Source: Nanobdellota archaeon
Lineage (GTDB): Archaea; Nanobdellota; Nanobdellia; Woesearchaeales; GW2011-AR9
Length of the DNA stretch: 64,000 nucleotides
Assembly (NCBI GenBank): GCA_030697505.1
Contig: JAUYPX010000026.1
Location: 53,322 to 117,321 of the forward strand
Direction: 5' to 3'
Notes under the pieces: generated by a model
Told to the model about the DNA's origin: nothing
Database searches by the model: none
What the model saw: only the letters and a program-made list of their open reading frames with translations
In this document: positions 1 through 54,848 of the stretch, piece after piece
Layout: each line of letters opens with the position of its first letter
Numbering within the stretch: position 1 is the first letter of the stretch
Made by a program: the position numbers and the translations under genes

Positions 1-1762
1 CCCATTGCAGAGACCGGTCTGCCTCAATATCTCTGATTATTCTCTTCCCTAGCAAGCTCCAATAATATTTCGGCTTGATGCCAGTTTCTGGTTTTTTCAT
101 GCGCACCATTTCCGCAGTAAGTACTGTGCCCGCAGGAATATCGACATGCGCTACCACGCTCCGTCGAGCTGTTCTTGCAACTTCATCTTCACGCAGAGTT
201 CGCCGTTTCACTCCATCTCCTAAAGCCATCTCAATATTTCTAACTGCCCGTACTAAGGCTTCTAACTCTCCGAAAACTAACGACGCTTTATGATCAGGCC
301 CTGGCAAAGTTTTATCGAGAGTAAAATGCCGCTCCAATATTCTTGCTCCTAAGGCAACTGCAACCGTAGAAGCTTCAATACCCATGGTATGATCAGAATA
401 ACCAATATGTAATGTAGGATAGCGTTCACGCAAACGAGCAATAACATTCAGATTTGCATCTTGGAACTGAGTAGGGTAATCAGATACTGCATGGAGTAAA
501 ATTATTTGTTCATTTCCTACTTCTTGACAGACTTGAATAGCTTCATCAATTTCTTCATATGTTGCCATGCCTGTTGAAATGATCATCGGTTTTCCACATT
601 TGGCCGTATCTTTCAACAGAGGTAAATTAGTAATATGCGGAGATCCTATTTTGTAGGCAGGCGGATCAACCTTCTTTAAAACTTCCAGGCTTTCCGCATC
701 CGACGCAGTAGATAGAAAAATAGTCCCTTTCTTTGCCGCATATTCCGCCAGCATCTTGGTCTGATCTTCGGTGATTTTCAATCGTTCCAGCATGGTTTGA
801 TAATTCCCTTCTGGACCATCATTCTCTTTTTGATAGGTAACTTTCGGAGTAAACTTACTGGTGCCGGTCTGTGGATTAAAGTTTTGAAACTTCACTGCAT
901 CTGCGCCTGCTTCTACCGCTAAATCTATCAATTTGTGAGCCAGATCCATATCTCCATTATGATTAACCCCTATTTCAGCGATAATAAAGGTTGGATGCTC
1001 ATCACCGAGCTGCTTTCCGGCAATAGTTATTGGTTTCCGAGAGATATGGTTTTGTTTTCCTTGCTCTAACCTTTTTCTTTCCTCAAGTATTTTTTCCGCT
1101 ACCTGCCAATCAGCATACGTATCAATGTCTAAAGAATCATCTTGAGACATAATTACAGGGATATTCTTTTCTCCATACAAATTTCCGGTAGAGAGAAATA
1201 CTTCTTTGCGAACTACATAGGCTGCGCCATTAAGGATGTAATGAGTCCTTCGCAAAGATTTGTTAAAAAAAGCAGTCTTGTTTTGAAAAACTAATTTTTC
1301 GCCCTCTTCCACAAACATCAGTTCCGGTTTTTCCTTCACTAGTGCAACTGTTTGACTGGAATCAGCATCATTATCAACTAATTTCTTGATACATTTTTCA
1401 ATTTCAGCAGTTTTTCGAAAAGGACAGGTTGGCTGTAAAAGAACCACTAAATCATATTTTTCCTGTTGCTCTTTCTCAAATTCTGTCACCACATAGCGCA
1501 AGGAATCCTGTGAGGTGGTAGCGTCTTCCGCTAAATGCGCCGGCCTTTTTTGCACTACACAAGGAAACCTACTGCTTACTTTCAGAATTTCATCACTGTC
1601 GCTGGAAACGACGATCTTATCGATCAGCGCTGATCGTACTGCCGCCTGGATAGTATGTCCTATCAAAGGAACTCGACCTAAATTTTTTATATTTTTCCCC
1701 GGAAGTCTTTTTGAACCGCCCCGAGCTAAGATAACTGCAAGTATCTTTTTCCCTTTATACAT
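1..1762 (-). CDS. Bifunctional fusion. The N-terminal domain is an acylneuraminate/nonulosonate cytidylyltransferase (NeuA-like CMP-NulO synthetase). The C-terminal domain is a NeuB-type nonulosonic acid synthase with SAF domain. The 3' end runs a few codons past the window start.
   Basis: Absent from the ORF track because it is open at position 1. Manual minus-strand translation starts at the ATG at 1762..1760 and gives MYKGKKILAVILARGGSKRLPGKNIKNLGRVPLIGHTI (CMP-sugar synthetase motif). It continues without a stop through ...EERKRLEQGKQNHISRKPITIAGKQLGDEHPTFIIAEIGVNHNGD...KFQNFNPQ...PAYKIGSPHITNLPLL... (NeuB TIM-barrel). It reaches a SAF-like ...DIPAGTVLTAEMVRMKKPETGIKP... at the edge, about 587 codons in all. 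Confidence 0.8.
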   Translation of the reverse strand, partial: MYKGKKILAVILARGGSKRLPGKNIKNLGRVPLIGHTIQAAVRSALIDKIVVSSDSDEILKVSSRFPCVVQKRPAHLAEDATTSQDSLRYVVTEFEKEQQEKYDLVVLLQPTCPFRKTAEIEKCIKKLVDNDADSSQTVALVKEKPELMFVEEGEKLVFQNKTAFFNKSLRRTHYILNGAAYVVRKEVFLSTGNLYGEKNIPVIMSQDDSLDIDTYADWQVAEKILEERKRLEQGKQNHISRKPITIAGKQLGDEHPTFIIAEIGVNHNGDMDLAHKLIDLAVEAGADAVKFQNFNPQTGTSKFTPKVTYQKENDGPEGNYQTMLERLKITEDQTKMLAEYAAKKGTIFLSTASDAESLEVLKKVDPPAYKIGSPHITNLPLLKDTAKCGKPMIISTGMATYEEIDEAIQVCQEVGNEQIILLHAVSDYPTQFQDANLNVIARLRERYPTLHIGYSDHTMGIEASTVAVALGARILERHFTLDKTLPGPDHKASLVFGELEALVRAVRNIEMALGDGVKRRTLREDEVARTARRSVVAHVDIPAGTVLTAEMVRMKKPETGIKPKYYWSLLGKRIIRDIEADRSLQW

Positions 1763-1795
1763 ATATTCTCCTCCCAAAAAGACATTCTTAAATGT

Positions 1796-2734
1796 TTAGT
1801 ATCCTTGTTCTAAATCAACAACATTGGTGATCTTCCCGGTAGCGGCAAAAAGCCGTAAGTTCTTGATGACATCATCTAAATGCGGCGCTCCCTCTACCAC
1901 AGCAGCCCTATAAGGAGAAAGGATAATGTTATCTAATTTTTCAAAAGGAAATCTGGTTGAAAATTGTACTGAGTTAGCGCCTTTTAAAAAATCATCATAC
2001 CACACATCGATTGCTGCTGCCTGAATTTGTTTATTCTTTAATGCCGTATACAACGCTTCTTGGTCTATGACCGGCCCTCGTCCTACATTGATCAAGCCAG
2101 CTGACTTTTTCATAAACGCAAATTCTTTCTTTCCGATCAATCCCCTTGTCTCTGAAGTTAACGGCAAGGTCACCACGATGTAATCTGCCTGAGAAAGCAC
2201 TTCTTTCAAATTATTGGTAACATAAATCCCTGGATCTTTCTGCCCCATTTCCTGACGTCTGAAAACCATCAGCCTGCAGCCAAAAGGGCCAAGAAATTCC
2301 GACAATTTTTTTCCGATCTTCCCATACCCTAAAATGCCCACCACTTTTCCTTTCAGGGTTTCAGGTAATCGTTCCTGCCTCTGCACGACCATCTTCTTGG
2401 TTAAGGCCAGAAGCAGAGTGACGGCATATTCGGCGACATAGTGGCTGTTGGAATGCGAATTGCAGAGCAAAATATCTTTTCTTTTCAGCACAGAAAGAGG
2501 TAATTTTTCCACCCCTGCGCTGGGAGTTTGAATTAATTTCAAGTTAATGCAATTATCTAGCACTTTTTCAGTAACCTTCATCCCCAGCAAAACATCTGCT
2601 GAGCCAGCCAGGGAAGCTAGATGATCTTCCGTATACTCATCAGGAAAAATAATAGTGTAAAGATCTTGAAGGCCATTGACTAATTTCTCCTTATCCGTAT
2701 CGTTAAACTTATGCAATGAAAGAAGTGTTAGCAT
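1796..2734 (-). CDS. D-isomer-specific 2-hydroxyacid dehydrogenase family (NAD-binding), paralog 1
   Basis: ORF-track protein has the GxGxxG Rossmann signature VGILGYGKIGKKLSEF plus catalytic-domain similarity to glycerate/phosphoglycerate dehydrogenases. Confidence 0.75.
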   Translation of the reverse strand: MLTLLSLHKFNDTDKEKLVNGLQDLYTIIFPDEYTEDHLASLAGSADVLLGMKVTEKVLDNCINLKLIQTPSAGVEKLPLSVLKRKDILLCNSHSNSHYVAEYAVTLLLALTKKMVVQRQERLPETLKGKVVGILGYGKIGKKLSEFLGPFGCRLMVFRRQEMGQKDPGIYVTNNLKEVLSQADYIVVTLPLTSETRGLIGKKEFAFMKKSAGLINVGRGPVIDQEALYTALKNKQIQAAAIDVWYDDFLKGANSVQFSTRFPFEKLDNIILSPYRAAVVEGAPHLDDVIKNLRLFAATGKITNVVDLEQGY

Positions 2735-2757
2735 TTTTTTATTTCCCCATGCTAAAA

Positions 2758-3933
2758 TCAGAGCCGCAGCTCCTGCACAAATTCTTCAAGGTAGTGAACT
2801 CCTTTCGCAAATTCGGCTTCATCTACTCCTAAACTTATTCTGATATGATCATCCCAATGTTCGCCGAAGACCATTCCTGGGGTAGCCGCTACCCCTTTGC
2901 TCTCTACCAGCTTGGTACAAAATTCATCTGAGCCCAACCCTGATCCAGAGATGTTGATAAAACAGAACTGGCTGCCTTGAGGCTGGACTAATGATAATAG
3001 GCCATTTTGTGAAATCATCTTCTGAAGTTCCAGAGCATTCTTCTGTAACAAGGTACGGAAAGAAGACAAATAATCTGCAGGTAAAGAAAAAGCGGCGCAG
3101 GCTCCTTTTTGGATGAAAGTGCAGACATTGGTATTGACATGATGCTGCATTTCTGCGATATGCTGCGCGATTGGGAGCGGAGCTATCACATAGCCTAATC
3201 TCCATCCAGTCATGCTATACGCTTTGCTGAAGCCATTTACAGTTATCAGTTTTCCTGCCAATCCCTTGACTGAACCAAGACTAAAATGGGTTTCATCTGA
3301 ATAGGCTAACTTTTCATATACCTCGTCAGAAAGAAGATAAAAATCATGTTTTATCGCCAGCTCAGCCAGCTGCAGCAGCTGCTCTTTTGAAAACATTTTT
3401 CCGGTCGGATTATGCGGAGTGTTGACGATCAATAATTTCGTTTTGGGAGTGATATTTTTTTCAATCTCCTCAATATCTAAAGAAAAATCGTTCTTGTTCA
3501 AGTCAATGACATTTATTTTCACTGACGGTTCAGCCAATTTCAATTGAGGGATATAGCTGGGATAGCAAGGAGCGATGACTATGGCTTCATCTTCCGGTTC
3601 TAGTAATGCTAACAAACTTAGATAAATAGCCTGTTTCGCACCAGTAGTCATGACGATATTTTGGATGCCGCATTCAATGCCATTTTCTTCGGATAATTTT
3701 TTCTTGATCAATTCTCGTAATTCCACCAACCCATACTTATGGGAGTATTTGGTATATCCAGCATGTAGTGCGGCGACGGTGCTTTCTTTTACCGCTGCAG
3801 GAGTTGGATAGGGAGATTCGCCTAATCCCAAAGAAATAACTTCCTTTCCTTCCTGAATTCTTTTCCGGGTCGCTTCGCTCACCTTCAACTGTAGAGAACC
3901 GCTAAAATCCATTCGTTTACTTTTATTCATCAT
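2758..3933 (-). CDS. PLP-dependent aminotransferase, class I/II (aspartate/aromatic aminotransferase fold)
   Basis: Motifs NTPHNPTG and SKAYSMTGWRLGY (PLP-lysine region) are typical of fold-type I AAT-family enzymes. Confidence 0.8.
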   Translation of the reverse strand: MMNKSKRMDFSGSLQLKVSEATRKRIQEGKEVISLGLGESPYPTPAAVKESTVAALHAGYTKYSHKYGLVELRELIKKKLSEENGIECGIQNIVMTTGAKQAIYLSLLALLEPEDEAIVIAPCYPSYIPQLKLAEPSVKINVIDLNKNDFSLDIEEIEKNITPKTKLLIVNTPHNPTGKMFSKEQLLQLAELAIKHDFYLLSDEVYEKLAYSDETHFSLGSVKGLAGKLITVNGFSKAYSMTGWRLGYVIAPLPIAQHIAEMQHHVNTNVCTFIQKGACAAFSLPADYLSSFRTLLQKNALELQKMISQNGLLSLVQPQGSQFCFINISGSGLGSDEFCTKLVESKGVAATPGMVFGEHWDDHIRISLGVDEAEFAKGVHYLEEFVQELRL

Positions 3934-5194
3934 TCCGTTTCTCTACCCAAACCGGTTTCTTTAACTTCCAAGTTCCATCCGCAAATTCCCAGAGATTCTT
4001 ATTGCGAAACTTTTCAATACACTCCAAAAACCGTCCCTCGGTTATGCCCAGGTAGTCAAGGAAATCCTGGAAATACTTTTTAGGAAACTCCTGATCAAAC
4101 TTTTTAACTAAAGCGACTGCTTCTTCGCGGGTAATTTTATTGTTCCGGCATTCCTGTGCGGCATCATAAGTAGCCCGGCCGATCCCAAATTTGACTAATT
4201 GTGTATAATAATGGAAAGGATCGCTTTTATCATCGATGCTGCTATACTTGGAGTAAGACCCTTCCGTACGTTCGGTGTTTGCCTCAAATCCTATATGCTC
4301 CACCGCATAATAATACGCTTCCTGAGGATCCCATTTAACATACCATCCTAAATAATGGACTTGAATACCTTTTTGATCATACTCTTCTGGATCGATGGGA
4401 AGATATGCTTTTAGGTCAGTCATGCTAGCTCCGTGCTTTTCAATTAATTCCTTTATCGGAACTCCGCCTAAACACATCTTGTCATAATCGGCGCCAGTAT
4501 GATAATGTTTTTTGCGTTGCGCCCCATCATTTCCTGGGTCGCCATAATCAACTCCTGGTTCTCCATAAAAGACCAGAGGGATATCGAACTTAGCGGCAAT
4601 CTTAGGCGCCAGGTTCTTCTGCCCTAAAATAAACGGTTGGAACGGATGCAATAAATTTTCAAATGCCAGTTTAGTCAAGAGTTTATGCACTTTCCCATTT
4701 GGATGAAAAAGAATATTATCAAACCCTGCACCAATCCAATGCTGCATATTTCGCCAACCTACTTCAGTATACATGTGCGGAGCCCAGGTTACGGTGAGAG
4801 GATTCATTTTATATTTATATTTTAACAAGTGAGCTACCATCACGCTATCCTTGCCGCCGCTGCCGGAAACAATACAATCGTGCGACCCATCGCTCTTTCT
4901 ATATTTGTCGCATAAATCCCATAATAATTTCTCTCGTTCCTGCCAATCGATTTGATTAGTTTTTTTTTCATGATACCGACAGGCCGCGCATACTCCCGTC
5001 TCATCAAAATCAATGGTCTCTGTTGCCGAATTAGAATTATGTTTAAATTCGGATTTCTTGGCTAAAGGCCGCTGATTAGAGATGATGCATTTCGTGCAGT
5101 ATTTGACCTCCCGTGGTAATCCGTAAGGAACATCTACTACCTCAACTTGTTCTGTTTGTTGATGGTTTACATCTTCTAATCTATTTTCTGCCAT
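3923..5194 (-). CDS. N-acetyl sugar amidotransferase (WbuX/WbpG/PseA/AglX family; PP-loop ATP pyrophosphatase)
   Basis: N-terminal Cys pairs (CTKCIISNQRP...CAACRYHEKK, zinc-ribbon) precede the PP-loop IVSGSGGKDSVMVAHLL. It sits next to HisH/HisF paralogs, the canonical WbuXYZ/AglXYZ arrangement. Confidence 0.75.
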   Translation of the reverse strand: MAENRLEDVNHQQTEQVEVVDVPYGLPREVKYCTKCIISNQRPLAKKSEFKHNSNSATETIDFDETGVCAACRYHEKKTNQIDWQEREKLLWDLCDKYRKSDGSHDCIVSGSGGKDSVMVAHLLKYKYKMNPLTVTWAPHMYTEVGWRNMQHWIGAGFDNILFHPNGKVHKLLTKLAFENLLHPFQPFILGQKNLAPKIAAKFDIPLVFYGEPGVDYGDPGNDGAQRKKHYHTGADYDKMCLGGVPIKELIEKHGASMTDLKAYLPIDPEEYDQKGIQVHYLGWYVKWDPQEAYYYAVEHIGFEANTERTEGSYSKYSSIDDKSDPFHYYTQLVKFGIGRATYDAAQECRNNKITREEAVALVKKFDQEFPKKYFQDFLDYLGITEGRFLECIEKFRNKNLWEFADGTWKLKKPVWVEKRNDE

Positions 5195-5203
5195 TTTTCC
5201 ACC

Positions 5204-6703
5204 TCATGCATTAGCAAATAAATTGAGCATATCTAATCCAAATTCCCCGCTTTTTTCAGGATGAAACTGGCATCCATAGATGTTTCCTTTTTTAAAAACG
5301 GCGCAGAATTTTTGTCCACCATACTCAGTGGTAGCCAACACCGTGCCCTGATCATCCGGGACGAGGTAATAGGAATGGATAAAATAAACTTTGGTATTCA
5401 AAGGAGTGTCGCCTAAAATAGTATTGCTCCAAGCCAGGCTTGATGCCGGAGTAAGAGTATTCCACACCACATGCGGTACACGGTAACCTTTGACAGCAAC
5501 TTCTTGCGGTTTCTTGAATCCGACCACTTTTCCTTTGACGATATCTAAACCTTGATGCCTTCCAAATTCTTCACTTTCACTCAATAATAATTGCGCGCCT
5601 AAGCAGATCCCTAAGAGCGGCTTTCCTGAGGCGACATACTCTTTTATCGCTGACGCCAGTCCGCGTTTCTCGAGCTGGGCCATGCCTTCTCCATATGCGC
5701 CTACTCCTGGCAATACCAAATGTGTCGCCTCTTTAACTTCCCAGGAAGCACAGACTATTTTAACCTGAGCTCCAATCTTTTCAAAGGCGCTAATCACGCT
5801 CATGATATTTCCAACACCGTAATCGATGATCGAAATCACCTTTCCTTTTTTCTTCTCATGATTTTTAACTTCTCCTTTTACGGATTCATGATTTTTTCTA
5901 AAAGATAGGTTCGTTTTTTCCTTTTCCAATGCAGTTTTAATTTCAGGGAGGGTAGACTTTTTGTAATGCAATATCGAGCCCACGGCAACCGCATCACAGT
6001 TTGTTTCTATTGCACATTTTACCACGTGCTGCGGATTTCCTGCGCCGCCAGAAGCAATAATTGGAACAGACACTAATGTTGAAATTTTCTGCATCAATTC
6101 AAGGTCATAACCAGATTCGCAGCCATCTCTATCTACAGAAGTGATAAGCAGCTCGCCTGCTCCCAGTTCCACCAGTTTTACTGCCCACTCCACCGCATCC
6201 AAACCGGTCCTTTCCCGGCCATTGTCTACATACGCTTCCCATTTTTGAGGGCCTATTTTTTTAGCTTCGATGGAACCAACAATGCATTGTGAACCAAATC
6301 TCCTCGCCGCTTCCGTGATCAATTCAGGTCTCCGAGTAGCGGCAGTGTTTATAGCAACTTTATCTGCGCCCGCATGCAACAGCTCCTGAATATCTTCCAG
6401 TTTTCGTACCCCGCCGCCTACGGTCATGGGCACATACACGCCTAAGGAGATCGCTTCTTTTACCACATTCGATAAATTATTTCGCCCATATAAACTGGCC
6501 ACGATATCAATATATAAGATTTCATCGGCGCCTTGCTCATAATATTGTTTCGCTAATTCCGCCGGTTTTCCCACTACTCGCAGGCCTTCTAACCTGAGTC
6601 CCTTTACAACGTTAGAACCTTTAACATCCAACCTAGAAATAATCCGTACATTCCTCATGAAAATACCACTATAACGGGTGTTTTTAAAGATTATGATATC
6701 CAA
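5204..6703 (-). CDS. Fused imidazole-glycerol-phosphate-synthase paralog. HisF-like cyclase/ammonia-channel domain is N-terminal and HisH-like class-I glutamine amidotransferase is C-terminal (WbuZ-WbuY-like).
   Basis: N-terminal half has IISRLDVKGSNVVKG, DEILYIDIVAS, PMTVGGGVR, GAGELLITSVDRDGC and PIIASGGAG (HisF). C-terminal half has IIDYGVGNIMSV, LVLPGVGAYG, GICLGAQLL and QFHPEKS (HisH catalytic Cys/His). Confidence 0.85.
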   Translation of the reverse strand: MDIIIFKNTRYSGIFMRNVRIISRLDVKGSNVVKGLRLEGLRVVGKPAELAKQYYEQGADEILYIDIVASLYGRNNLSNVVKEAISLGVYVPMTVGGGVRKLEDIQELLHAGADKVAINTAATRRPELITEAARRFGSQCIVGSIEAKKIGPQKWEAYVDNGRERTGLDAVEWAVKLVELGAGELLITSVDRDGCESGYDLELMQKISTLVSVPIIASGGAGNPQHVVKCAIETNCDAVAVGSILHYKKSTLPEIKTALEKEKTNLSFRKNHESVKGEVKNHEKKKGKVISIIDYGVGNIMSVISAFEKIGAQVKIVCASWEVKEATHLVLPGVGAYGEGMAQLEKRGLASAIKEYVASGKPLLGICLGAQLLLSESEEFGRHQGLDIVKGKVVGFKKPQEVAVKGYRVPHVVWNTLTPASSLAWSNTILGDTPLNTKVYFIHSYYLVPDDQGTVLATTEYGGQKFCAVFKKGNIYGCQFHPEKSGEFGLDMLNLFANA

Positions 6704-6756
6704 GCTAACCTTCCGCTAAAGAAAATTTTATAAATAGCAAGACTGCTCACCGCATC

Positions 6757-7599
6757 ATGAACAGTTCTATATTAGTCATGGGCTATGATGTGGAAAGATA
6801 TATGTCTCCCGAAGATAGGATGTCTTCTCTGCAGGGAGTGAAAAAAATAATTGCCCTACATAGGGCTTACCACGCACCTTTCACCTTCTTCATGCTTGGC
6901 AAGCTTTTAGAATACGATGACTATGTCGCAGAATTGAAAAAAGAACTTGCCCTTGCTGGGGATTTAGCGGATATCCAACAACATACCTATTCTCATCCGC
7001 TCTTAAAAGTCAATGAGAGATACATGCGCGAGAAAAATAGGAAACCCCTTTCTGTCTCTGAAATAGACGCAGAAATTAAGAAAGCTAATCACATCATAGA
7101 AAGTAAATTAGGAGTAAAGGTATTTGGACTAAAAACTCCTATCGGTTTTCACAAAGGCCTTCAGGGAGAAAAAGCCATATTGGATGTCCTTAAAAAAAAT
7201 GGCATGCGCTTTGTTTCTTCAGACCTGGTTGGGAAAGGCGATCATCCGCCTGCGCTCTTGGAAGAAGACGGAAAGCTGAGGCAGCACTATGTATATGAAA
7301 ATGGCCTAACTGAAGTTCCCACTCACGGTTGGCACGACACCCATATACTGTTAAAGAACATGTCTCCCTATAAAGGCGTTAAGGAAGCCTGTGCATACTA
7401 CCAAAATGAATTAAGCAAGGCCCATAATAAAGGCATGATGTACGCTCCAAATTTACATCCTTTTATATATAGCGACCGTGATCACGACCCGCAGGCTTCC
7501 ATCGTGGAAACTTTCTTATCATTTGCAAAAGCAAATAAAATACCGGTGATGAGTTATGCGGGATATGTTGAGCATATTCAAAAAAAATCTAACCCTTAA
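6757..7599 (+). CDS. Polysaccharide deacetylase-like (NodB/CE4 homology domain), divergent
   Basis: HTYSHP-type His motif and overall NodB-like features. Weak, by-eye assignment. Confidence 0.45.
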   Translation: MNSSILVMGYDVERYMSPEDRMSSLQGVKKIIALHRAYHAPFTFFMLGKLLEYDDYVAELKKELALAGDLADIQQHTYSHPLLKVNERYMREKNRKPLSVSEIDAEIKKANHIIESKLGVKVFGLKTPIGFHKGLQGEKAILDVLKKNGMRFVSSDLVGKGDHPPALLEEDGKLRQHYVYENGLTEVPTHGWHDTHILLKNMSPYKGVKEACAYYQNELSKAHNKGMMYAPNLHPFIYSDRDHDPQASIVETFLSFAKANKIPVMSYAGYVEHIQKKSNP

Positions 7600-7610
7600 T
7601 AAGACTATCG

Positions 7611-8279
7611 CTAAGGCCATGACAGGAGGATCTTGCGAAGATCAGTGAAATTTTCGACTATGAAACTTATTTTTGATTTATCTGCCTTTTCCATCTCACC
7701 TAAACCCCAGCCAACCAGGATCATCTTGGTGCCCAGCTTATGGGAAGCCTCAATGTCCGTAGCAGTGTCGCCGACATAATAGTTTCCCTCAAAATCATGC
7801 GGCAAAAAATGTTCTACCAAACGCTGGTATTTTCTATCAGCATGACTCTGCCCAACGGGAACTGGACCGGTAAAGATCACTTTTGAAAAAAAATCTGAAA
7901 TTCCCAAATTTTTCAGCTGATTTACACTATTGTTGATATTATCTCTTAGAGATAGAAGCACTAATTCATATTTTTTTTCCTGCAGCTCAGCTAGGAGCGG
8001 CCGTACTGATTGATGCAGCCTATCCATATCTAGATATCTGCTTTCTTCAAGAATAGAATTTCTATACTGCTTAAAATTAATGATTCTATCTGAAGAGAGA
8101 TGATATTCTTGCACTAATATCTGAGCATCTTTTATCCCTTTCCTTTTAAGATGGAGATATTTTTCTTTGGAGAGGGGAGAAATATTGATCGCTGCACAGC
8201 ATTCACAAAAAACAGCATAATATCGTTCACTTATATCGATGAGCGTGCCATCAAAATCAAAAATTATTTTTTTTCCCAT
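7611..8279 (-). CDS. HAD-superfamily hydrolase/phosphatase
   Basis: N-terminal DxDGTL motif (IIFDFDGTLID). A C-terminal GD..D motif is likely (YVGDTATDIEAS). Confidence 0.7.
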   Translation of the reverse strand: MGKKIIFDFDGTLIDISERYYAVFCECCAAINISPLSKEKYLHLKRKGIKDAQILVQEYHLSSDRIINFKQYRNSILEESRYLDMDRLHQSVRPLLAELQEKKYELVLLSLRDNINNSVNQLKNLGISDFFSKVIFTGPVPVGQSHADRKYQRLVEHFLPHDFEGNYYVGDTATDIEASHKLGTKMILVGWGLGEMEKADKSKISFIVENFTDLRKILLSWP

Positions 8280-8287
8280 ACAACCAT

Positions 8288-9313
8288 CTAGTTCAACAAG
8301 GTATAATTTCGCGGCAATCGCTGCCCATTTTCTTCTACAAAAACTTCATCCCAGTGCCTATACATCCATAATTTATCCTTAAAGTTCCCCAACCGTGGCT
8401 CTACTTTTTCGCCATTGAACAACTTTAACATCAGATAAGGGGTGTTCAAACCGCTGGCGATAGTATGGGCATGAGTGGCGCCGATGCGGGGATTTATCTC
8501 AAAGAGCAATGCTTCTCCAGTCTGCAGGTTTTTGAATATCTGGACGTTTATAGGACCGATCAAACCTAAATGTTCCACAATCTCTTTGGCCATGGTAATC
8601 AAGAGTGGATCCTTGACTGTAACTCCTCTATACGCTGCTCCGTATCTAACTTCTTCTCGAGTTCTGGGTACCACTCCGAGTACTCTGCCATTAAAATCAG
8701 CAGCGACATCGACACTAAACTCTTTCCATGCGCCCAAGTATGGTTGAACAATAGGTATCGGCACTTGACTTGCCTTTTCCTGTAACTCTTCTAAACTATG
8801 GATTACATGAGTGTGTTTTGAGCCGGTTCCTATACGAGGCTTAATGAACAAAGGAAAAGATAATCCGCCAGCTTTCACTTTCTCAACTGCTTCTTCCAAT
8901 AGGAAGGTCGGTACCGTCTTAAAATGGTGTTTCGCAAAATACGTGTAAGCGAGATACTTATCATCACAGATCTTAACTCCCTCAAAATGAGAAACCGCCA
9001 CCATCGTTCCAGTTTCCTTCTCTATTAACTGTTTATGTTGAGAAAGGGCCATGACTTCGCCGTCTGCTCCAGGAAAAAGAATATCTATTTTTTCCTTCTT
9101 ACATACTTTGATGATCTCCGTGACATAAGTAGGATCATCCCCGCGAGGAACTTTGTAAAATGCGTCCGTGAAATATCTGCCTGCATTATCATCCCGCGCA
9201 TCGGTGCTTACCAGATAGACATCAAATTGGTCCTGCTGCCGCACTCCTTTTATGAAACCTTGTGCAGCTACCGTTCCGATTCCCGTTATTAAAACTCTTA
9301 TTTGTTTTTTCAT
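8288..9313 (-). CDS. ATP-grasp domain ligase (carboxylate-amine ligase-like)
   Basis: Domain layout and motifs resemble CPSase/PylC-like ATP-grasp enzymes (ALLFEINPRIG... region, central Gly-rich loop). About 340 aa. Confidence 0.65.
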   Translation of the reverse strand: MKKQIRVLITGIGTVAAQGFIKGVRQQDQFDVYLVSTDARDDNAGRYFTDAFYKVPRGDDPTYVTEIIKVCKKEKIDILFPGADGEVMALSQHKQLIEKETGTMVAVSHFEGVKICDDKYLAYTYFAKHHFKTVPTFLLEEAVEKVKAGGLSFPLFIKPRIGTGSKHTHVIHSLEELQEKASQVPIPIVQPYLGAWKEFSVDVAADFNGRVLGVVPRTREEVRYGAAYRGVTVKDPLLITMAKEIVEHLGLIGPINVQIFKNLQTGEALLFEINPRIGATHAHTIASGLNTPYLMLKLFNGEKVEPRLGNFKDKLWMYRHWDEVFVEENGQRLPRNYTLLN

Positions 9314-9382
9314 ACTTTATCAACAGAGTTGTCAGTTTAAAAGTTTTTTGAATACTAAATCTTTTTCTGATTAGGTTAAACC

Positions 9383-10345
9383 CTATCTGGATTTATCTTT
9401 CTGTTCCAGGTTATCAAAAAAATGAACTACCTTTTTACCGCTATCGCGAGCAATTGTTTGTTGGACTTCCATCACCTGCGCCCCAAGGTGAGGGGTTAGC
9501 AGAATATTATAACCCCGTTTTGCTAGTTTAATGAGTTCGTGCTCGGAATGAGGCGGTTCTTCTTCAAAAACATCGGTAGCATACCCTGCGACGTGGCCGC
9601 TTTCAATCGCCTCCGCCAAGGCCGTGAAATCGAAGAGCTGTTCTCGGGAAGAATTGATGATATAAACGCCTTTTTTTAGCAAAGATATCTTCTCCCTATT
9701 TAGCAATCGATGTGTTTCTTTATTCAAAGGAAGATGCAGAGTTAAAAAATCCGATTGCCGCAGTAATTCTGGTAATGATACTAAAGTAACCCCATGCTTC
9801 GTAGCATATTCTTCAGTTTTTTCCGTATCCTGGGCTATAACTTTCATGCCATGGGCTCTAGCTCTTATAGCTACTTCAGTTCCAATCCTTCCCAAACCTA
9901 AGATACCTAAGGTTTTATTTTTAAAACTGCACCCGGTTAGTAAATCTCTTTCCCATTTTCCATCCAGCATCGAAAGATGAGCTTTTATCAGATTCCTGGT
10001 TAGATTCACTAACATGGCTATGCTATAATCAGCTACATTTTCTTTGCTTAGTTCCGGGCAATTGAATATCTGTATGCCCTTCTTATTTGCCGTTTCCAGA
10101 TGAACATTGTCTAAGCCGTTACCGGCACGTACCGCGCACAGTAGATTGGAGTTGTTAAGCAGTTCTTGATCTAACTTTGTTCTACTTCGGAATATGATTC
10201 CATCATAACCTTTAATGATCGCCTTTAACTCCTCTGCCGAGATATCTGAGCGAACATCTACCTCTAGTTTGGAGTTCCCTTCTTCAACTCCTTCCATGAA
10301 TGCATTTATATCAATGTTATCGCTGATCAGAACTCTTCGGATCAT
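9383..10345 (-). CDS. D-isomer-specific 2-hydroxyacid dehydrogenase family, paralog 2
   Basis: LGILGLGRIGTEVA Rossmann motif. Paralogous to 1796..2734. Confidence 0.75.
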   Translation of the reverse strand: MIRRVLISDNIDINAFMEGVEEGNSKLEVDVRSDISAEELKAIIKGYDGIIFRSRTKLDQELLNNSNLLCAVRAGNGLDNVHLETANKKGIQIFNCPELSKENVADYSIAMLVNLTRNLIKAHLSMLDGKWERDLLTGCSFKNKTLGILGLGRIGTEVAIRARAHGMKVIAQDTEKTEEYATKHGVTLVSLPELLRQSDFLTLHLPLNKETHRLLNREKISLLKKGVYIINSSREQLFDFTALAEAIESGHVAGYATDVFEEEPPHSEHELIKLAKRGYNILLTPHLGAQVMEVQQTIARDSGKKVVHFFDNLEQKDKSR

Positions 10346-10429
10346 AGTAAATGACCCACATTGACCTTATTTTAAATAAGTTGTGAAAGTCCATAAAAAA
10401 TATAAACAAAGATTATGCTACTACGGAAG

Positions 10430-11206
10430 ATGACCCAACATTTCGCCCAAACTAATATTCAGCTCTACAACCAGATGATTAAGGCTGGTTACCCTGAGTC
10501 TGATCTCCACCGCATAACTGAAGCATATAAACTTGCGGCTAAGGTCTTCGCGGGCTGCTATCGTCGCTCCGGTAAAAACCAGCAAGCTCATCTTATCGGC
10601 ACCGCCAGCATCATGGCCTGGCTCAGAAGACCAAGCATTTCGATAGCTGCTGCATTGTTGCACGCTGTCTACGAAGAAGGTAACTTCGGAAGTCGGATCA
10701 ATTTCAAGGAACTGCAGAACGCAACTTGTCCAGAGGTACAGCAGCTGGTCGCTGCTTACTATAAACTAAAGTGGTCGCATGATCTTAAGGAAGTTGATAA
10801 TTTGATCGCGCGTGTCAGTAACATGAATGATTTCTATCGTGAAGTAGTATTACTTCGCGTCGTGAATGAACTTGAAGATTATATCGATCTCGCTCCCCAT
10901 TACCATCTTGGAAGAAAAGGAGATGGAAGTCCAACCTATCTGGATGATGTTTCGCTGCGCAAATTCGCCCTTGCCCTCGGACAACCAAGACTCGCGAAAG
11001 AGATAAGCGCCCAATCCGATGCAGTACGAACGGCACAGATCCCCGCTAGCTTACATTATACATACCCGCGATTCAATCCCTCAGATCCCTACTGCCTTAC
11101 TATACGTGGCCGCTGGCGGCAGCTGCTGCGTAACTATAGAAGAATACGCAAGCCAGGACTGATCAAAATTATTCAAGCGGTAAAGCGTCGGTTAAAAAAT
11201 GATTAA
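10430..11206 (+). CDS. Rel/SpoT-like HD-domain protein with degenerate active-site residues (HD changed to HA)
   Basis: By-eye alignment to the (p)ppGpp-hydrolase HD domain gives YRRSGKNQQAHLIGTASIMAWL ~ [21 protein letters not shown] and AAALLHAVYEEG ~ AALLHDTVEDT. The ADRLHN motif is replaced by NELEDY. Start is placed at the second in-frame ATG (MTQHF), 30-35 bp downstream of an AT-rich TATA-like box. The ORF track starts at 10415. Confidence 0.5.
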   Translation: MTQHFAQTNIQLYNQMIKAGYPESDLHRITEAYKLAAKVFAGCYRRSGKNQQAHLIGTASIMAWLRRPSISIAAALLHAVYEEGNFGSRINFKELQNATCPEVQQLVAAYYKLKWSHDLKEVDNLIARVSNMNDFYREVVLLRVVNELEDYIDLAPHYHLGRKGDGSPTYLDDVSLRKFALALGQPRLAKEISAQSDAVRTAQIPASLHYTYPRFNPSDPYCLTIRGRWRQLLRNYRRIRKPGLIKIIQAVKRRLKND

Positions 11207-11292
11207 CTCTTTAAAATTCTGTGAAACAATTGCAACTCTTCATATATCTATTTTTAACAAGACTTAAAAATAAACTTCTTCTAACTGTGTAG

Positions 11293-12300
11293 ATGAAGAT
11301 AGCCTTAATCACCAGAGAATCAAAAGTAACCAAAGAAGCGACCCACATCACTGCTGGCAATTTTACCAAAGAATTGTCGCGATACGGAGAGATCACGGTT
11401 ATTTCCGATAAGAAGGTATCAGCATTCCTCTCCAAAATAAAAGCCCAGCAACATACCTTTGACATCATCCATAACTTCAGCGCCTCTCCCTTATTCGCGC
11501 TTAAAACTATCCTTGCCAAGAGATATCAGAAAAACGCCAAGACCGTCCATACTCTAAAATCGTATTCCCGCTCCGCTGGGGGATCTTTATACTTTTCAAG
11601 AATTTTAAATCTTGTTGACGCAATAACGGTACCTACCCAGGTCATGGCCGAAAAGCTTCTAAAACAGGGAGTGAAAAAAGAGAAGATCCATATTATCCGT
11701 TCCCATATTGATACCACTAAATTTATACCCTTAGATAAACAAGAATTGAAAGAAAAGTACGGATATCCAAAACAAAAAGTAGTGCTATATTATGGCAGCA
11801 CCTATTTCAAAAAAGGATTACAAAGTTTAGTGCAAGGAAGCCGACTCATCGACACCCAGATTATCATCGCTCCTCGGGATTATCCTAATCAAGAATTTTT
11901 TAATTCAGTTAAAGATAAGCCCAACATCAAAGTGATTACCGATGATATCAATGTCGTTGAGTACGTTAATCTTGCAGATATTATTGTGCTTCCCTATCTT
12001 GATCTTACTGCCACAGAAGGAAATCCCTCCTGTTTATTGGAAGCGATGGCTTGCAAGACGCCGATAGTGACCAGCGATCTTCCTGAATTGCGCGAGATCG
12101 TCGAACCAGAAAAAGAGGTGCTTATGGCCAAGCCGGGAGATGTTGCTTCGTTAGCTTTCCAGATAAATAGATTATTAAAAAATCCCCAATTAGGAAAAAA
12201 ACTAGCAGAAAATGCCTATTCTAAATCAAAACAGTTTGATACTAAACCAATTACAAAACAGTTTTTAGGTTTATACAATAGATTATCAAATATCCTATGA
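11293..12300 (+). CDS. Glycosyltransferase family 1/GT4 (retaining GT-B)
   Basis: C-terminal EX7E-type motif TEGNPSCLLEAMACKTPIVTSD is typical of GT4 enzymes. Confidence 0.8.
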   Translation: MKIALITRESKVTKEATHITAGNFTKELSRYGEITVISDKKVSAFLSKIKAQQHTFDIIHNFSASPLFALKTILAKRYQKNAKTVHTLKSYSRSAGGSLYFSRILNLVDAITVPTQVMAEKLLKQGVKKEKIHIIRSHIDTTKFIPLDKQELKEKYGYPKQKVVLYYGSTYFKKGLQSLVQGSRLIDTQIIIAPRDYPNQEFFNSVKDKPNIKVITDDINVVEYVNLADIIVLPYLDLTATEGNPSCLLEAMACKTPIVTSDLPELREIVEPEKEVLMAKPGDVASLAFQINRLLKNPQLGKKLAENAYSKSKQFDTKPITKQFLGLYNRLSNIL

Positions 12301-15418: not shown

Positions 15419-16690
15419 ATGAAGATGATCGTACGAGAGCGGTGCAGGGTAGACGATAGTGAACTCATTGAGTTATTTGATCTAGGAGAGTTATATCTCT
15501 CCCATTTTCAAGATCCCCGCCAGCCGCCGCAACAGCCGAAAGTTCCATTGGTTCTTTGTATGGGAAAAGACAGCAAGATGGTGCAGCTCAAACATAGCGC
15601 CCCTTCTTCTAATATGTACGAAGAATACTGGTACCGCTCCGGGATCAACCAGACTATGGCTGCTGAGTTGAAGTCTATCGCTGCCTCTGTATTGGAGACG
15701 ATGCCATTAAAAGAAAAGGATATCGTTGTCGATGTCGGCTGCAATGACGGGACTTTAGTCAAGAATTATCCGAAGCATCTTACTATTGTAGGTTTTGATC
15801 CTGCTAAAAATTTATATCAATATTCTTCTCAGCACACCACTAAAACTATAGTCAATTATTTTTCAGCAGAAGAATATTTCAAGCACTTTCAAGAGAAAGC
15901 AAAAGTCTTGACCAGTATCGCCATGTTTTATGATTTAGAAGATCCTAATAGATTTGTAAGCGACGTTTATAAAGTTCTAGATCAAGAAGGTTTGTGGATT
16001 ATCCAGATGAGTTATTTGCCCTTGATGCTGAAACAGATGGCTTTTGATAATATTTGTCACGAACATCTGGAATATTACTCGCTGCAAAGCCTAGCCTATC
16101 TCTTAGAACGGCATGATTTTAAGGTAGTAGATTGCCAGCTCAACGACATCAATGGGGGAAGTTATCGCATCTACATCCGCAAAAAAAATGCTAATCCTCT
16201 CTTATTCAGCACCGCGCAATACCGCGATGTCGCCGATTTCAGGGTGCAGAGCATTCTTGAATACGAAAAAAGCCTGAGATTGGACCGGCCGGAGACGTAT
16301 TTCAACTATTTTGAAAAAATGAAGGAAATCAAACAGGAAACTCTTGATTTTTTACAGCAAGAAAAAGCAAAAGGGAAAAAGATATTCGGCTATGGCGCTT
16401 CCACCAAAGGGAATACTTTACTGCAATGGTACGATATCAACCATCAGAATCAGCTTATTGAAAAGATAGCCGAACGCAATCCAGACAAATGGGGTAAAGT
16501 CACCATTGGGACAAACATACCGATCTGTTCAGAAGAAGAAGCAAGAACAGAAAAACCAGATTACTTGTTTGTCCTTCCTTGGCATTTCCGTTACGAGTTC
16601 TTGAAACGAGAGACTGATTTTCTACAGCGAGGAGGAAAATTCATCTTCCCACTTCCCAAGTTCGAAGTTGTTGGCATAGATGACATCTAA
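15419..16690 (+). CDS. TylCIII-like sugar C-methyltransferase family (SAM MTase with C-methyltransferase C-terminal domain), paralog 1
   Basis: VDVGCNDGTL SAM motif, IAMFYDLEDPNRF, GYGASTKGNT and KPDYLFVLPWHF. Paralogous to 20665..21915. The N-terminal zinc-ribbon is degenerate in this copy. Confidence 0.7.
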   Translation: MKMIVRERCRVDDSELIELFDLGELYLSHFQDPRQPPQQPKVPLVLCMGKDSKMVQLKHSAPSSNMYEEYWYRSGINQTMAAELKSIAASVLETMPLKEKDIVVDVGCNDGTLVKNYPKHLTIVGFDPAKNLYQYSSQHTTKTIVNYFSAEEYFKHFQEKAKVLTSIAMFYDLEDPNRFVSDVYKVLDQEGLWIIQMSYLPLMLKQMAFDNICHEHLEYYSLQSLAYLLERHDFKVVDCQLNDINGGSYRIYIRKKNANPLLFSTAQYRDVADFRVQSILEYEKSLRLDRPETYFNYFEKMKEIKQETLDFLQQEKAKGKKIFGYGASTKGNTLLQWYDINHQNQLIEKIAERNPDKWGKVTIGTNIPICSEEEARTEKPDYLFVLPWHFRYEFLKRETDFLQRGGKFIFPLPKFEVVGIDDI

Positions 16691-17435
16691 AATGTCAAAA
16701 CTCTTCATCTCCTATGTACTTCCTGCCTACAATGAGGAAGAAAACGTTCTTCTTCTGATGGACAAAATAACTTCTGCCATGAAAGATATCAAAGAGGAAT
16801 ATGAGATTATCTTTGTCATCGAAGGGACTGATCAGACCTATCCTCTTCTGCTAAAATATAAAGAAGAACATCCAGAAGTAAGCATGAGATTATTCTACCA
16901 GCCTGAACCTTTAGGGCTGACGTACGCCTTCAAGAAGGGATTTGAAAACATCGCAGAAGAAGCGACCCATGTCGTGACCATGGATGTGGATTTAAACCAT
17001 AAGCCTGAAGAATTGCCTTTGCTTATAAAAAAAGCAAAAGAAGGCTACAATGTAGTTATCGGTTCCCGAGCGTTGGATGGGGCGCAGGTCATGAACGTTC
17101 CTGCTTGGAAAATAATGATCAGCAAATTTGCTAATACAGTGTTTAATAAAGCTTTTAATATAGAGGTTAAAGATAAAACCAGCGGCTTTAGGATGATCGA
17201 TGCTGAAACCATCAAGGAAGTGGCGCCTTTAGTACAAGCTAAAAATTTTGAGGGATTGATGGAGTTTTTGTTGATCGCCAATTACCAGAACAAATCCATG
17301 GCCGAAGTGCCTATCACCTTAATCCATCGGCAGTTTGGGGAGACCAAATTCCATCTCTTTAAGACTGGAATAGATTATGCTAGATTGCTATTGAAGCAGA
17401 AATATAGGAAACGGAAGAAAAAAATAACAAAATAA
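16680..17435 (+). CDS. GT2 glycosyltransferase, DPM1/polyprenyl-phosphate sugar synthase-like
   Basis: N-terminal VLPAYNEEENV and D-rich DxD region (VTMDVDLNH). 251 aa, no obvious C-terminal TM. Confidence 0.8.
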   Translation: MTSKMSKLFISYVLPAYNEEENVLLLMDKITSAMKDIKEEYEIIFVIEGTDQTYPLLLKYKEEHPEVSMRLFYQPEPLGLTYAFKKGFENIAEEATHVVTMDVDLNHKPEELPLLIKKAKEGYNVVIGSRALDGAQVMNVPAWKIMISKFANTVFNKAFNIEVKDKTSGFRMIDAETIKEVAPLVQAKNFEGLMEFLLIANYQNKSMAEVPITLIHRQFGETKFHLFKTGIDYARLLLKQKYRKRKKKITK

Positions 17436-17454
17436 TGCTATTGATACGTAACTC

Positions 17455-18477
17455 ATGAAAAAAGCGCTCATTACCGGTATAACTGGACAAGATGGCTCCT
17501 ATCTGGCAGAATTTCTTCTCAAAAAAGGATATGAAGTGCATGGATTAGTGAGAAGGGTTTCAGTAGATACTTTAGGCAGGATAAATCATCTCAAAGATAA
17601 AATAATCCTACACCATGCCGATTTGATGGATCAATTCTCTATCACCAAGGTGATTAAGGAAGTACAGCCAGAGGAAGTGTATCATCTAGGGGCGATGAGT
17701 TTTGTCGGCACTAGCTGGCGTCAGCCCGTGCTTACTGGAGAAATCACCGGGATGGGGGTAGGAAGAATTTTAGAAGCGATCCGCTATGAAAATCCAAAAG
17801 TCAGATTTTACCAGGCCTCCAGCTCAGAAATGTTCGGCGCTGCTCCTGCGCCACAGCATGAAGAGACAAAATTTCATCCGCGCAGCCCATACGGAGTGGC
17901 TAAAGTATATGCTCATCATATGGTGGTCAATTATCGCGAGAGCTTTAACTTATTCGCTTGCAGCGGTATTTTATTCAACCACGAAAGTGAACGTAGAGGG
18001 TTGGAATTTGTCACCAGAAAAATAAGCCATGCTGTGGCGAGGATAAAACTTGGTGCGCAAGAAGTATTGGAATTAGGAAACTTATATGCGAAAAGAGATT
18101 GGGGACACGCCGAAGATTATGTCAAAGCGATGTGGCTGATGCTCCAGCAGGAAAAGCCGGATGATTTCGTCATAGCCACCGGGGAAACTCATAGTGTTAA
18201 GGAATTTGTAGATGAAGCTTTCAAAGTGGTAGGAATGCCCTTAACCTGGGAAGGAGAAGGCGTGCATGAAGTGGGCAAATTTCAAGGGAAGGTAGTTGTT
18301 CGGATCAATCCTAAATATATCCGTCCAGCTGAAGTGGATCACTTATGCGGCGATTACAGCAAAGCAAAAAAAATTCTTAAGTGGGAGCCTGCCATCAAGT
18401 TCTCGCAATTAGTTGAGAGAATGGTGTCAGCGGATTTGGAAAATGTCAGAAAAGAATTGGCTTATCACCGGCATTGA
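17455..18477 (+). CDS. gmd: GDP-mannose 4,6-dehydratase
   Basis: MKKALITGITGQDGSYLAEFLLKKGYEVHG is a near-canonical Gmd N-terminus. 340 aa, extended SDR. Confidence 0.9.
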   Translation: MKKALITGITGQDGSYLAEFLLKKGYEVHGLVRRVSVDTLGRINHLKDKIILHHADLMDQFSITKVIKEVQPEEVYHLGAMSFVGTSWRQPVLTGEITGMGVGRILEAIRYENPKVRFYQASSSEMFGAAPAPQHEETKFHPRSPYGVAKVYAHHMVVNYRESFNLFACSGILFNHESERRGLEFVTRKISHAVARIKLGAQEVLELGNLYAKRDWGHAEDYVKAMWLMLQQEKPDDFVIATGETHSVKEFVDEAFKVVGMPLTWEGEGVHEVGKFQGKVVVRINPKYIRPAEVDHLCGDYSKAKKILKWEPAIKFSQLVERMVSADLENVRKELAYHRH

Positions 18478-19381: not shown

Positions 19382-19453
19382 ATTTTAGAAATGTCAAAGA
19401 AATTCGACACCACTGGTGAACACCCCAGTAGCATGCCGGTCGAATTTCAGACC

Positions 19454-19479
19454 CTTCTTTTCAAGAAAAGAAGATTTTA
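19454..19479 (+). terminator. Hairpin plus T-run after the gmd-reductase pair
   Basis: CTTCTTTTC-aa-GAAAAGAAG inverted repeat followed by ATTTTA. Confidence 0.4.
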
Positions 19480-19550
19480 TAAAGGGAAGAATTTCTAAAA
19501 AAAAGATCATTCAAAATTCCACAGATCAAAATAAAAATGAGACCGCCGCT

Positions 19551-21915: not shown

Positions 21916-22016
21916 TAAGAATTCGCAAGAGTTTTTCAAAGAATCTCTAACCAGTAGTGAAAACAAAGATTCTTAATCTTTAAATAGAAATCTGGCCCCA
22001 TCACCGGTTAAGAAAG

Positions 22017-45058: not shown

Positions 45059-45098
45059 GTCTCTTTTTCTAACTGTTATCTATTTTTCTTATTCTATC

Positions 45099-49394: not shown

Positions 49395-49404
49395 GATTCT
49401 TTCT

Positions 49405-50142: not shown

Positions 50143-50199
50143 AACGAAGCAGAAAAGGTTTAAGAAGATTATGGAATAAGGTTTTATGTGAAAGGGTGA

Positions 50200-52484: not shown

Positions 52485-52507
52485 AAAAAAGAGAAATAAA
52501 TACGCTT

Positions 52508-53404: not shown

Positions 53405-53463
53405 AAGATAAGAACCCTGATAGTTATTTTATAAAGGTTATGTAACCTAATGACCAAACTTTA

Positions 53464-54834: not shown

Positions 54835-54848
54835 ATAGATTGCCTCCC

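Follow-up and report, generated by a model that had tools for sequence, protein, structure and literature searches.

On the way from a nucleotide sugar to a nonulosonate activated with cytidine monophosphate (CMP), a hydrolysing 2-epimerase, a nonulosonate synthase and a CMP-nonulosonate synthetase act in this order. In the closest described systems they are separate proteins, namely LegG, LegI and LegF of Campylobacter jejuni, Acinetobacter baumannii and Halorubrum sp. PV6 (LegG, PDB 5zlr) and SiaA, SiaC and CNS of Neisseria meningitidis (PDB 1xuz, 1eyr). Here we analyse a gene at the edge of a 64,000-nucleotide (nt) stretch of DNA from a Nanobdellota archaeon (GenBank assembly GCA_030697505.1, contig JAUYPX010000026.1, positions 53,322 to 117,321), referred to as the window and numbered from its first letter. 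The gene encodes domains for the same three chemistries, with the same folds, in one polypeptide of the order NeuA-NeuB-NeuC.

The only published fusions that we met in the literature are vertebrate GNE and a NeuB of Leptospira. In GNE (PDB 4zht), too, a hydrolysing 2-epimerase is naturally joined to a second enzyme of the same nonulosonate pathway, and the GNE epimerase is homologous to the one described here. However, the partners here are a synthase and a CMP-synthetase rather than a ROK kinase, and the epimerase is C-terminal instead of N-terminal. Pfam detected no ROK-family N-acetylmannosamine (ManNAc) kinase domain in the 982-amino acid (aa) protein, and we have no evidence of a counterpart to the CMP-sugar feedback regulation of GNE. 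NeuB of Leptospira interrogans carries a C-terminal phosphatase-like domain (PMC3438082); it is likewise a synthase fused to a pathway-related domain but differs in partner, in organism and in having two domains instead of three. Full-text literature searches yielded no description of natural NeuA-NeuB or NeuA-NeuB-NeuC fusions and no account of nonulosonate pathways in DPANN archaea, and a large-scale phylogeny of nonulosonate synthases makes no mention of fusions.

Extent and domain composition of the gene

Positions 1 to 1762 of the window (minus strand) hold the 5' 60%, codons 1-587, of a neuA-neuB-neuC gene of 982 codons. The start ATG lies at 1760-1762 and the frame stays open for 587 codons to window position 1; the gene is missing from the list of open reading frames (ORFs) owing to the window edge, as had been supposed in an earlier note on this DNA. 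A Shine-Dalgarno-like GGAGG motif, read from the sequence, precedes the ATG by 7 nt (1770 to 1774, minus strand). Since only 33 nt separate this start region from the stop codon of the preceding gene, the fusion gene probably belongs to an operon. In a protein search, all 587 window residues were 100% identical to MDP3698722.1 (P0001), a 982-aa protein from a Nanoarchaeota metagenome-assembled genome (MAG), encoded on a contig of 122,665 nt. The exact protein is thus already present in NCBI nr, with an incomplete name ('MAG: UDP-N-acetylglucosamine 2-epimerase [Nanoarchaeota archaeon]'). A Logan contig (L001) matches window positions 1 to 11762 in reverse complement, with 0 mismatches in 11762 bases, and holds the entire 2949-nt gene with a single, terminal stop; the 395 codons outside window position 1 lie at L001 11763-12949.

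The gene product comprises three complete enzyme domains: a NeuA/LegF-like synthetase (residues ~1-238), a NeuB/LegI-like synthase with its SAF domain (~245-591) and a NeuC/LegG-like epimerase (~600-982). The pathway runs in exactly the opposite order. The earlier note had described a NeuA-NeuB fusion in a single frame with the synthetase before the synthase. The two fused domains and their reversed order are borne out by the 587 stop-free codons, by the domain positions and by the profile searches it had asked for, in which CTP_transf_3, NeuB and SAF all matched with Pfam scores far above chance. A frameshift artefact, which the note had considered, does not account for the fusion, as approximately 73 of the 120 best clusters at 90% identity have the same CTP_transf_3-NeuB(-SAF) architecture at 34-88% identity. 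The description was nevertheless incomplete. Extension of the contig, also proposed there, gave the full gene in L001 and added the third enzyme, which P0001 contains as well: the NeuC-like enzyme presumed there to be encoded beyond the edge forms the C-terminal domain of this one polypeptide. Nor are further pathway genes to be sought upstream beyond the edge, because that side is downstream of the gene and the true upstream genes sit inside the window; neither a dehydratase nor a DegT aminotransferase or N-acetyltransferase gene is found in the L001 extension.

The synthetase domain (CTP_transf_3, residues 9-236; window 1055 to 1738, minus strand) matches its Pfam model with 87.6 bits (E 1.4e-24). 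When aligned to the CMP-NeuAc synthetase of N. meningitidis (1eyr), it keeps the equivalents of R12, K21, Q104, T106, D209 and D211, and the R/K nucleotide-binding motif, the Q-x-T motif and the D-x-D metal site are all present. With the PseF model TIGR03584 the full protein scores 131.8 bits (133 for the window fragment) and does not reach the cut-off of 205.7. The TIM barrel of the synthase (residues 278-519; 206 to 931, minus strand) matches Pfam NeuB (PF03102) with 293 bits (E 1.6e-87; 292 bits with the full protein) over model positions 1-241 of 241. It scores 389.3 bits with TIGR03569 (NeuB_NnaB) compared with 279 for PseI, whose cut-off is 340 (390 and 281 bits for the window fragment). 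All five equivalents of E25, H215, E234, H236 and D247 of N. meningitidis NeuB (NmeNeuB), which we take to be the metal-binding histidine pair and the catalytic acidic residues, are kept in a pairwise HMMER alignment to 1xuu. The SAF (antifreeze-like) domain follows at residues 533-587 (1 to 166, minus strand; 41 bits with Pfam PF08666), its final 4 residues lying outside the window; in the full protein it scores 44.8 bits over model positions 1-63 of 63. The Neisseria proteins thus share the domain families and the NeuB and NeuA catalytic residues with the window protein, whereas their identity to it is moderate (178 and 86 bits), a lysine is found here for Arg314 and the 4-OH-binding glutamate is missing from the epimerase.

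Residues 600-965 of P0001 match the profile of a NeuC-type epimerase, encoded at L001 11786-12946 beyond the window edge. The score of 424.5 bits with TIGR03568 (NeuC_NnaA) is nearly double the cut-off of 235.9, although neither this model nor TIGR03569 separates NeuC/NeuB from LegG/LegI. Pfam Epimerase_2 (PF02350) gave 266.8 bits and the non-hydrolysing wecB family only 108 bits. The best solved homologue is LegG of A. baumannii, a GDP/UDP-diNAc-bacillosamine 2-epimerase (255 bits, compared with 188 for human GNE). Equivalents of GNE D112, R113, H132, D143 and R147 are invariant in the epimerase alignment, and D106, R107 and D138 (domain numbering; D112, R113 and D143 of GNE) are unchanged in 55 of 55 sequences. 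In GNE, D112 and D143 form the catalytic aspartate pair and R113 is specific to hydrolysing enzymes (PMC4793188).

One motif of the epimerase deviates: residues ~721-733 of P0001 contain HIAGGVVTEGAIDD where the majority of homologues read 'HIHGGE'. Where GNE has Glu134, the window protein has alanine, as do the ten standalone homologues nearest to it (56-82% identity) and 17 of the 55 aligned sequences altogether. The glutamate of the trailing 'GGE' is valine here and valine or tyrosine in the same ten homologues. Glu134 of GNE contacts the 4-OH of ManNAc; the E134A variant is inactive, and Gln or His 'but not alanine' can substitute (Chen et al., PMC4793188). To judge from the alignment, the clade-wide Ala/Val pair may reflect a pocket adapted to a sugar without a 4-OH, i.e. 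with a 4-acylamino group. As a side observation, this signature might serve as a specificity marker for 4-N-acyl substrates. Decay of the enzyme was considered as an explanation and set aside, the signature being kept across the clade including standalone neuC genes.

In an AlphaFold2 model of the 982-aa protein, based on an alignment of 112 sequences, all three domains fold confidently, with a mean predicted local distance difference test (pLDDT) score of 93.6. The score dips only at residues 231-240 (~60) and 591-600 (~75), the two linkers. The NeuA-to-NeuB linker (1043 to 1072, minus strand) thereby stands out from flanking values of 90-98, and it corresponds to variable, gapped columns in the alignment of 56 fused homologues. 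No solved structure covers two of these domains.

Origin of the two joins

Many bacteria have neuA (~240 aa), neuB (~350 aa) and neuC (~390 aa) side by side as individual genes, ordered A-B-C. A scan of GTDB species representatives combined with a stop-to-stop frame check revealed such unfused genes in Clostridium brassicae, C. ganghwense, C. tepidiprofundi, Prosthecobacter, Anaerolineales, Yanofskybacteria and Polaromonas; among the matches listed, the best locus was 41% identical. The reversed domain order was thus inherited from the neuA-neuB-neuC gene order of unfused operons and therefore needs no functional explanation.

The join between NeuA and NeuB is old and widespread, and its junction is short and conserved, with typically 36-41 residues from the D-x-D motif to the first NeuB motif. 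The join between NeuB and NeuC is recent. In a relative from groundwater (L002, 88% identical), neuAB (598 aa) and neuC (388 aa) are separate genes that overlap by 8 nt, ATGTCTAA. The junction of the window lineage reads GGAAAAAAAG; its A-run is one base shorter than in L002, and neuC is brought in frame. This SAF-to-NeuC join lies 11 nt past the window edge (L001 11774-11800) and passes through an A7 tract. The old neuC ATG of L002 aligns with AAG in the window lineage and with AAA in L003. A shortening of the A-run by 1 nt abolished the stop of the overlapping neuAB and neuC genes and so created the fusion, after which neuC lost its own ATG.

L003 represents a second fused lineage, whose protein (P0003) is 87% identical and 980 aa long, with a junction that is 6 nt longer and in frame. 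Its gene is base-for-base identical in contigs of three datasets (L003, L004 and L005), and the A-run there is A6. In both fused lineages a Band_7 gene comes after the ATP-grasp gene, where relatives have DegT and dehydratase genes, and this shared derived neighbourhood suggests a single B-C fusion event. A neighbour-joining distance tree leaves P0001, P0002 and P0003 unresolved with regard to a single or double origin of the join. We also considered phase variation through the A7 run as the principal explanation and rejected it, given the shortness of the run and the different junction sequence by which the sister lineage is fused.

Occurrence of related fusions

Proteins of NeuA-NeuB architecture form ~40 representative clusters at 50% identity and were found in Thermoplasmata, Pirellulales, Phycisphaeraceae and Limnocylindrales. 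Such two-domain proteins with or without SAF (MCD6461872.1 of Thermoplasmata, GJM24604.1 of Phycisphaerae, others of Pirellulales and Limnocylindrales) share the domain order and the short junction with the window protein and are 34-88% identical over its residues 1-590, but they end after SAF, with neuC following downstream as a gene of its own. A-B-C triples are rare. Outside the clade of the window protein the architecture was represented by one unrelated protein, P0267, an independent NeuA-NeuB-NeuC of 1146 aa with 31% identity and long inserts; close triple fusions are uncounted here, since the search at 50% identity folds them into a cluster headed by the two-domain protein P0004. The 120 best epimerase homologues are all standalone proteins.

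Other combinations occur as well. NeuB-NeuC fusions were found in a Methanosarcinales MAG and ~10 representative clusters, NeuC-NeuB in 4 representative clusters, NeuC-NeuA in a Bacteroides MAG and NeuA-NeuC in P0273. Fusions of NeuC with an acetyltransferase (P0301) or DegT (P0349), of NeuB with a radical SAM domain (P0359) and a NeuB-NeuB-NeuA protein (P0276) were also present, as was a NeuA-NeuB-SAF-PIG-L deacetylase of 899 aa from Woesearchaeota (P0022).

Gene neighbourhood

Directly upstream of the fusion gene lies a gene for a D-isomer 2-hydroxyacid dehydrogenase (1796 to 2734, minus strand; Pfam), which adjoins neuAB in all relatives examined. It is preceded on the same strand by a class I/II (aspartate-type) aminotransferase gene (2758 to 3933, minus strand; Pfam, NCBIfam), a conserved member of the cassette. 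Next come a WbuX/PseA-type N-acetyl sugar amidotransferase, which forms an acetamidino group (3923 to 5194, minus strand; TIGR03573, 358 bits with a cut-off of 203), and its partner, a HisF/WbuZ-like cyclase fused to a HisH glutaminase (499 aa; 5204 to 6703, minus strand; Pfam, NCBIfam). The WbuX and HisF-HisH pair (3923-6703, minus strand) brings a further fusion into the operon and is kept in L002, L086, L087 and L088 and absent from L003. Downstream of the fusion gene, L001 encodes an ATP-grasp ligase, Yip1, Bax1-I and Band_7 proteins and a putative nonulosonate transferase. Altogether the window lineage combines a WbuX/PseA-type amidotransferase, two ATP-grasp ligases, two 2-hydroxyacid dehydrogenases, an aminotransferase and a HAD phosphatase around the gene.

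In relatives with 54-88% identity the cassette consists of HisF-HisH, WbuX, class I/II aminotransferase, 2-hydroxyacid dehydrogenase, neuAB, neuC and ATP-grasp ligase. A DegT gene follows the ATP-grasp gene in three of them (L002, L087 and L086). L002 and L087 additionally possess a PseB-like dehydratase and a divergently oriented transferase-like gene (~520 aa). In L086, the transferase-like gene and a member of the epimerase/dehydratase family occur at other places of the locus, and in L088 the locus extends no further than the ATP-grasp gene. No acetyltransferase of the LegH type or any other was present in any cassette examined.

Judging by the neighbouring genes, the product may be decorated with acetamidino and unusual N-acyl groups. 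Similar modifications occur in Tannerella forsythia, in the form of Pse5Am7Gra, for which no modifying enzymes are known (PMC5378307). The transferase-like protein of the window lineage (521 aa; L001 16230-17795, minus strand) matches the BFO_1060 family weakly (63 bits) and has homologues in L002, L003, L086 and L087. It further shows weak Epimerase_2 and Glyphos_transf matches, and one relative weakly matches an alpha-2,8-polysialyltransferase. The BFO_1060 family includes genetically proven transferases for pseudaminic and legionaminic acid derivatives of T. forsythia (PMC5420450), and we regard the ~520-aa protein as a candidate CMP-nonulosonate transferase.

Other gene clusters of the glycan island

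Three further clusters lie in the window. At 15419-24547 (plus strand), genes for a GDP-mannose 4,6-dehydratase (TIGR01472, 462 bits), two C-methyltransferases, a cupin, a DegT aminotransferase and a protein combining a CBS domain with an epimerase look like a pathway to a branched or methylated amino-deoxy sugar. The cluster at 43430-46076 (minus strand) corresponds to a WbpB/E/D-like pathway for a 2,3-diacetamido sugar and contains another fusion, a hexapeptide N-acetyltransferase joined to a DegT aminotransferase (542 aa), adjoining a UDP-GlcNAc 3-dehydrogenase-like gene. At 48666-56156 (minus strand) we observed a phosphonate-type set in which a cytidylyltransferase-like domain is fused to a phosphoenolpyruvate (PEP) mutase (435 aa), together with a gene resembling thiamine diphosphate-dependent decarboxylases, an Fe-alcohol dehydrogenase, a cytidylate kinase and a CDP-alcohol phosphatidyltransferase. 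The set may serve to decorate surface glycans or lipids with phosphonate; L087 likewise has a PEP mutase fusion near its cassette. Three large minus-strand ORFs at 24651-26513, 32685-34541 and 37440-39437 (620, 618 and 665 aa) gave no Pfam match.

Discussion

We interpret the gene as a three-enzyme fusion of a DPANN archaeon for the last steps to a CMP-nonulosonate, with a substrate of the legionaminic type likelier than UDP-N-acetylglucosamine (UDP-GlcNAc) and with a recent B-C join, and we assign this interpretation a probability of roughly 0.72. In the proposed sequence of reactions, the C-terminal domain would remove the nucleotide from a nucleoside diphosphate (NDP)-activated 2-acetamido-hexose and invert C2, the middle domain would condense the product with PEP and the N-terminal domain would couple the resulting nonulosonate to CMP using CTP. 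The CMP-sugar might then be N-acyl-modified and transferred to surface glycans, with the neighbouring WbuX/HisFH amidotransferase and the two ATP-grasp ligases as candidate modifiers and the ~520-aa BFO_1060-related protein as candidate transferase.

A legionaminic-type 2,4-diamino-2,4,6-trideoxyhexose, maybe with a bulky 4-N-acyl group, appears to be a more likely substrate than UDP-GlcNAc because the epimerase is closest to LegG, the synthase scores higher as NeuB/LegI than as PseI, the cassettes of relatives provide a matching context and the epimerase pocket contains the alanine. The pseudaminic route is unsupported: the PseI score stays under both its cut-off and the NeuB score, the epimerase is of the NeuC type, and among the NCBIfam-scanned proteins no PseG was above cut-off, the only match being one of 19 bits in the 521-aa transferase-like protein. 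With the described Leg pathway the system shares NeuB/SAF and CTP_transf_3, and relatives of the window gene keep DegT and a 4,6-dehydratase. It differs by uniting the three enzymes in one polypeptide, by an ATP-grasp ligase in the cassette where a LegH-type acetyltransferase would be found, by Ala/Val in the 'HGGE' motif of the epimerase and by the lack of LegB and LegC genes adjoining the gene.

Several observations weigh against our interpretation. The B-C join hangs on the A7 tract: an A8 would restore a TAA stop and an in-frame GTG start for a separate neuC, a slip of one base thus deciding between fused and split genes, and the two assemblies with A7 (the NCBI MAG and Logan SRR13727529) may have been built on the same reads. 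The NeuA domain reaches no CMP-nonulosonate synthetase equivalog cut-off in NCBIfam, the NeuB domain stays narrowly under that of TIGR03569 (389.3 compared with 399.65 bits), the NmeNeuB Arg314 position is occupied by Lys557 (codon at window 92-94, minus strand) and 'HIAGGV' of the epimerase differs from the 'HI[H/E]GGE' of characterised enzymes. Neither a PseB/LegB-type dehydratase nor a DegT gene stands beside the gene in the 64-kilobase (kb) window and the 6 kb beyond it, and the DegT genes of the window belong to the GDP-mannose-derived and the WbpB/E/D-like clusters. Tblastn with the DegT and PseB-like dehydratase of a relative against window and extension returned a DegT of 47% identity in the GDP-mannose-derived cluster and no close dehydratase. 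The three fused enzymes would in themselves suffice to convert UDP-GlcNAc into CMP-N-acetylneuraminic acid (CMP-Neu5Ac). The predicted template modelling score of the AlphaFold2 model is 0.54, and the model therefore does not define how the domains are arranged relative to each other or whether a tunnel links their active sites. Finally, we found no enzymatic data on any NeuA-NeuB(-NeuC) fusion in the literature.

A true Neu5Ac module, leading from UDP-GlcNAc via ManNAc and Neu5Ac to CMP-Neu5Ac with no need for a dehydratase or an aminotransferase, is the alternative that survives best, although we consider it unlikely. It would agree with the NCBIfam names of the epimerase and synthase matches (NeuC_NnaA with 424 bits, over the cut-off, and NeuB_NnaB with 389 bits) and with the lack of a PseB/LegB-like dehydratase or cassette DegT adjoining the gene both here and in the fused L003. 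However, these NCBIfam models do not distinguish NeuC/NeuB from LegG/LegI, the epimerase is nearer to LegG than to GNE, and it has alanine at the site for the 4-OH of GlcNAc/ManNAc, which is not tolerated in GNE (PMC4793188). Moreover, the enzyme of L002, with an 82% identical epimerase and the same active-site signature, adjoins DegT and a PseB-like dehydratase. The JGI labels of the closest homologues, diacetylbacillosamine 2-epimerase and diacetyllegionaminate synthase, point in the same direction but are automatic and only a weak hint.

The GNE epimerase fold binds CMP-Neu5Ac allosterically, and one domain of the fusion could accordingly be a degenerate passenger, either the epimerase as a mere binding or regulatory module or a NeuB impaired by the Arg-to-Lys exchange in SAF. 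Arg314 of NmeNeuB presumably extends into the active site of the partner subunit, and its replacement by lysine, a conservative exchange, would fit this idea, as would Ala and Val in place of E/H and E in 'H-x-[E/H]-G-G-E', given the inactive E134A variant of GNE (PMC4793188). We regard such a loss of function as very improbable. Across 56 fused homologues the aligned position in SAF is R in 47 and K in 9, with K common to the whole close clade. Both signatures are kept over a clade of 49-88% identity, and A128 and V/Y131 also occur in the standalone neuC proteins P0121-P0130; this conservation, including standalone genes, argues for a working, selected variant. The strictly conserved catalytic and UDP-binding positions (D, R, H, D and R-H) are all retained, and the TIGR03568 score is almost twice the cut-off.

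Least probable of all is a homopolymer error, A7 for A8, that merged a neuAB gene with an overlapping neuC that is unfused in this organism: the A8 frame would end '...GGMEKKA*' and neuC would start in frame from a GTG located 14 nt before the run (VEWKKKPKRK...), resembling the overlap in L002, but A7 is found in two assemblies (MDP3698722.1 as well as the Logan contig), fusion in the sister lineage L003/L004/L005 goes through another junction with an A6 run, the neuC start ATG of L002 is AAG here, and the 1146-aa P0267 exists as an independent A-B-C protein.

If the three domains act as we propose, the most likely benefit of their fusion is fixed 1:1:1 co-expression and co-assembly of the three enzymes. 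Characterised homologues of all three are dimers or higher oligomers. Substrate channelling in the fusion protein is possible but unproven. A more far-reaching version of the legionaminic-type reading is doubtful in our view: the product could be an undescribed nonulosonate for which an ATP-grasp ligase adds a hydroxyacyl or aminoacyl group as 7-N-acyl before the 2-epimerase acts, the trifunctional chain then leading from NDP-hexose to CMP-sugar, possibly with channelling. The bulky 7-N-acyl group is proposed because of the clade-specific Ala/Val pocket and the conserved cassette devoid of an acetyltransferase. If true, this would identify enzymes for the N-acyl diversification of nonulosonates, which are poorly known (PMC5378307).

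The enzymes themselves are well known and the two-domain fusion is common in public data; the novelty is therefore modest and lies at the level of architecture and annotation, with no new mechanism. A single-chain enzyme from NDP-sugar to CMP-nonulosonate would nevertheless be a compact catalyst for CMP-activated donors of the legionaminic type, and the fusion would be a natural experiment on whether joining consecutive sugar-nucleotide enzymes gives channelling. Genes of nonulosonate pathways fuse repeatedly and in nearly every pairwise combination. The locus is also one more indication that DPANN archaea with reduced genomes invest in large islands of surface-glycan genes, of which the whole 64-kb window is one.

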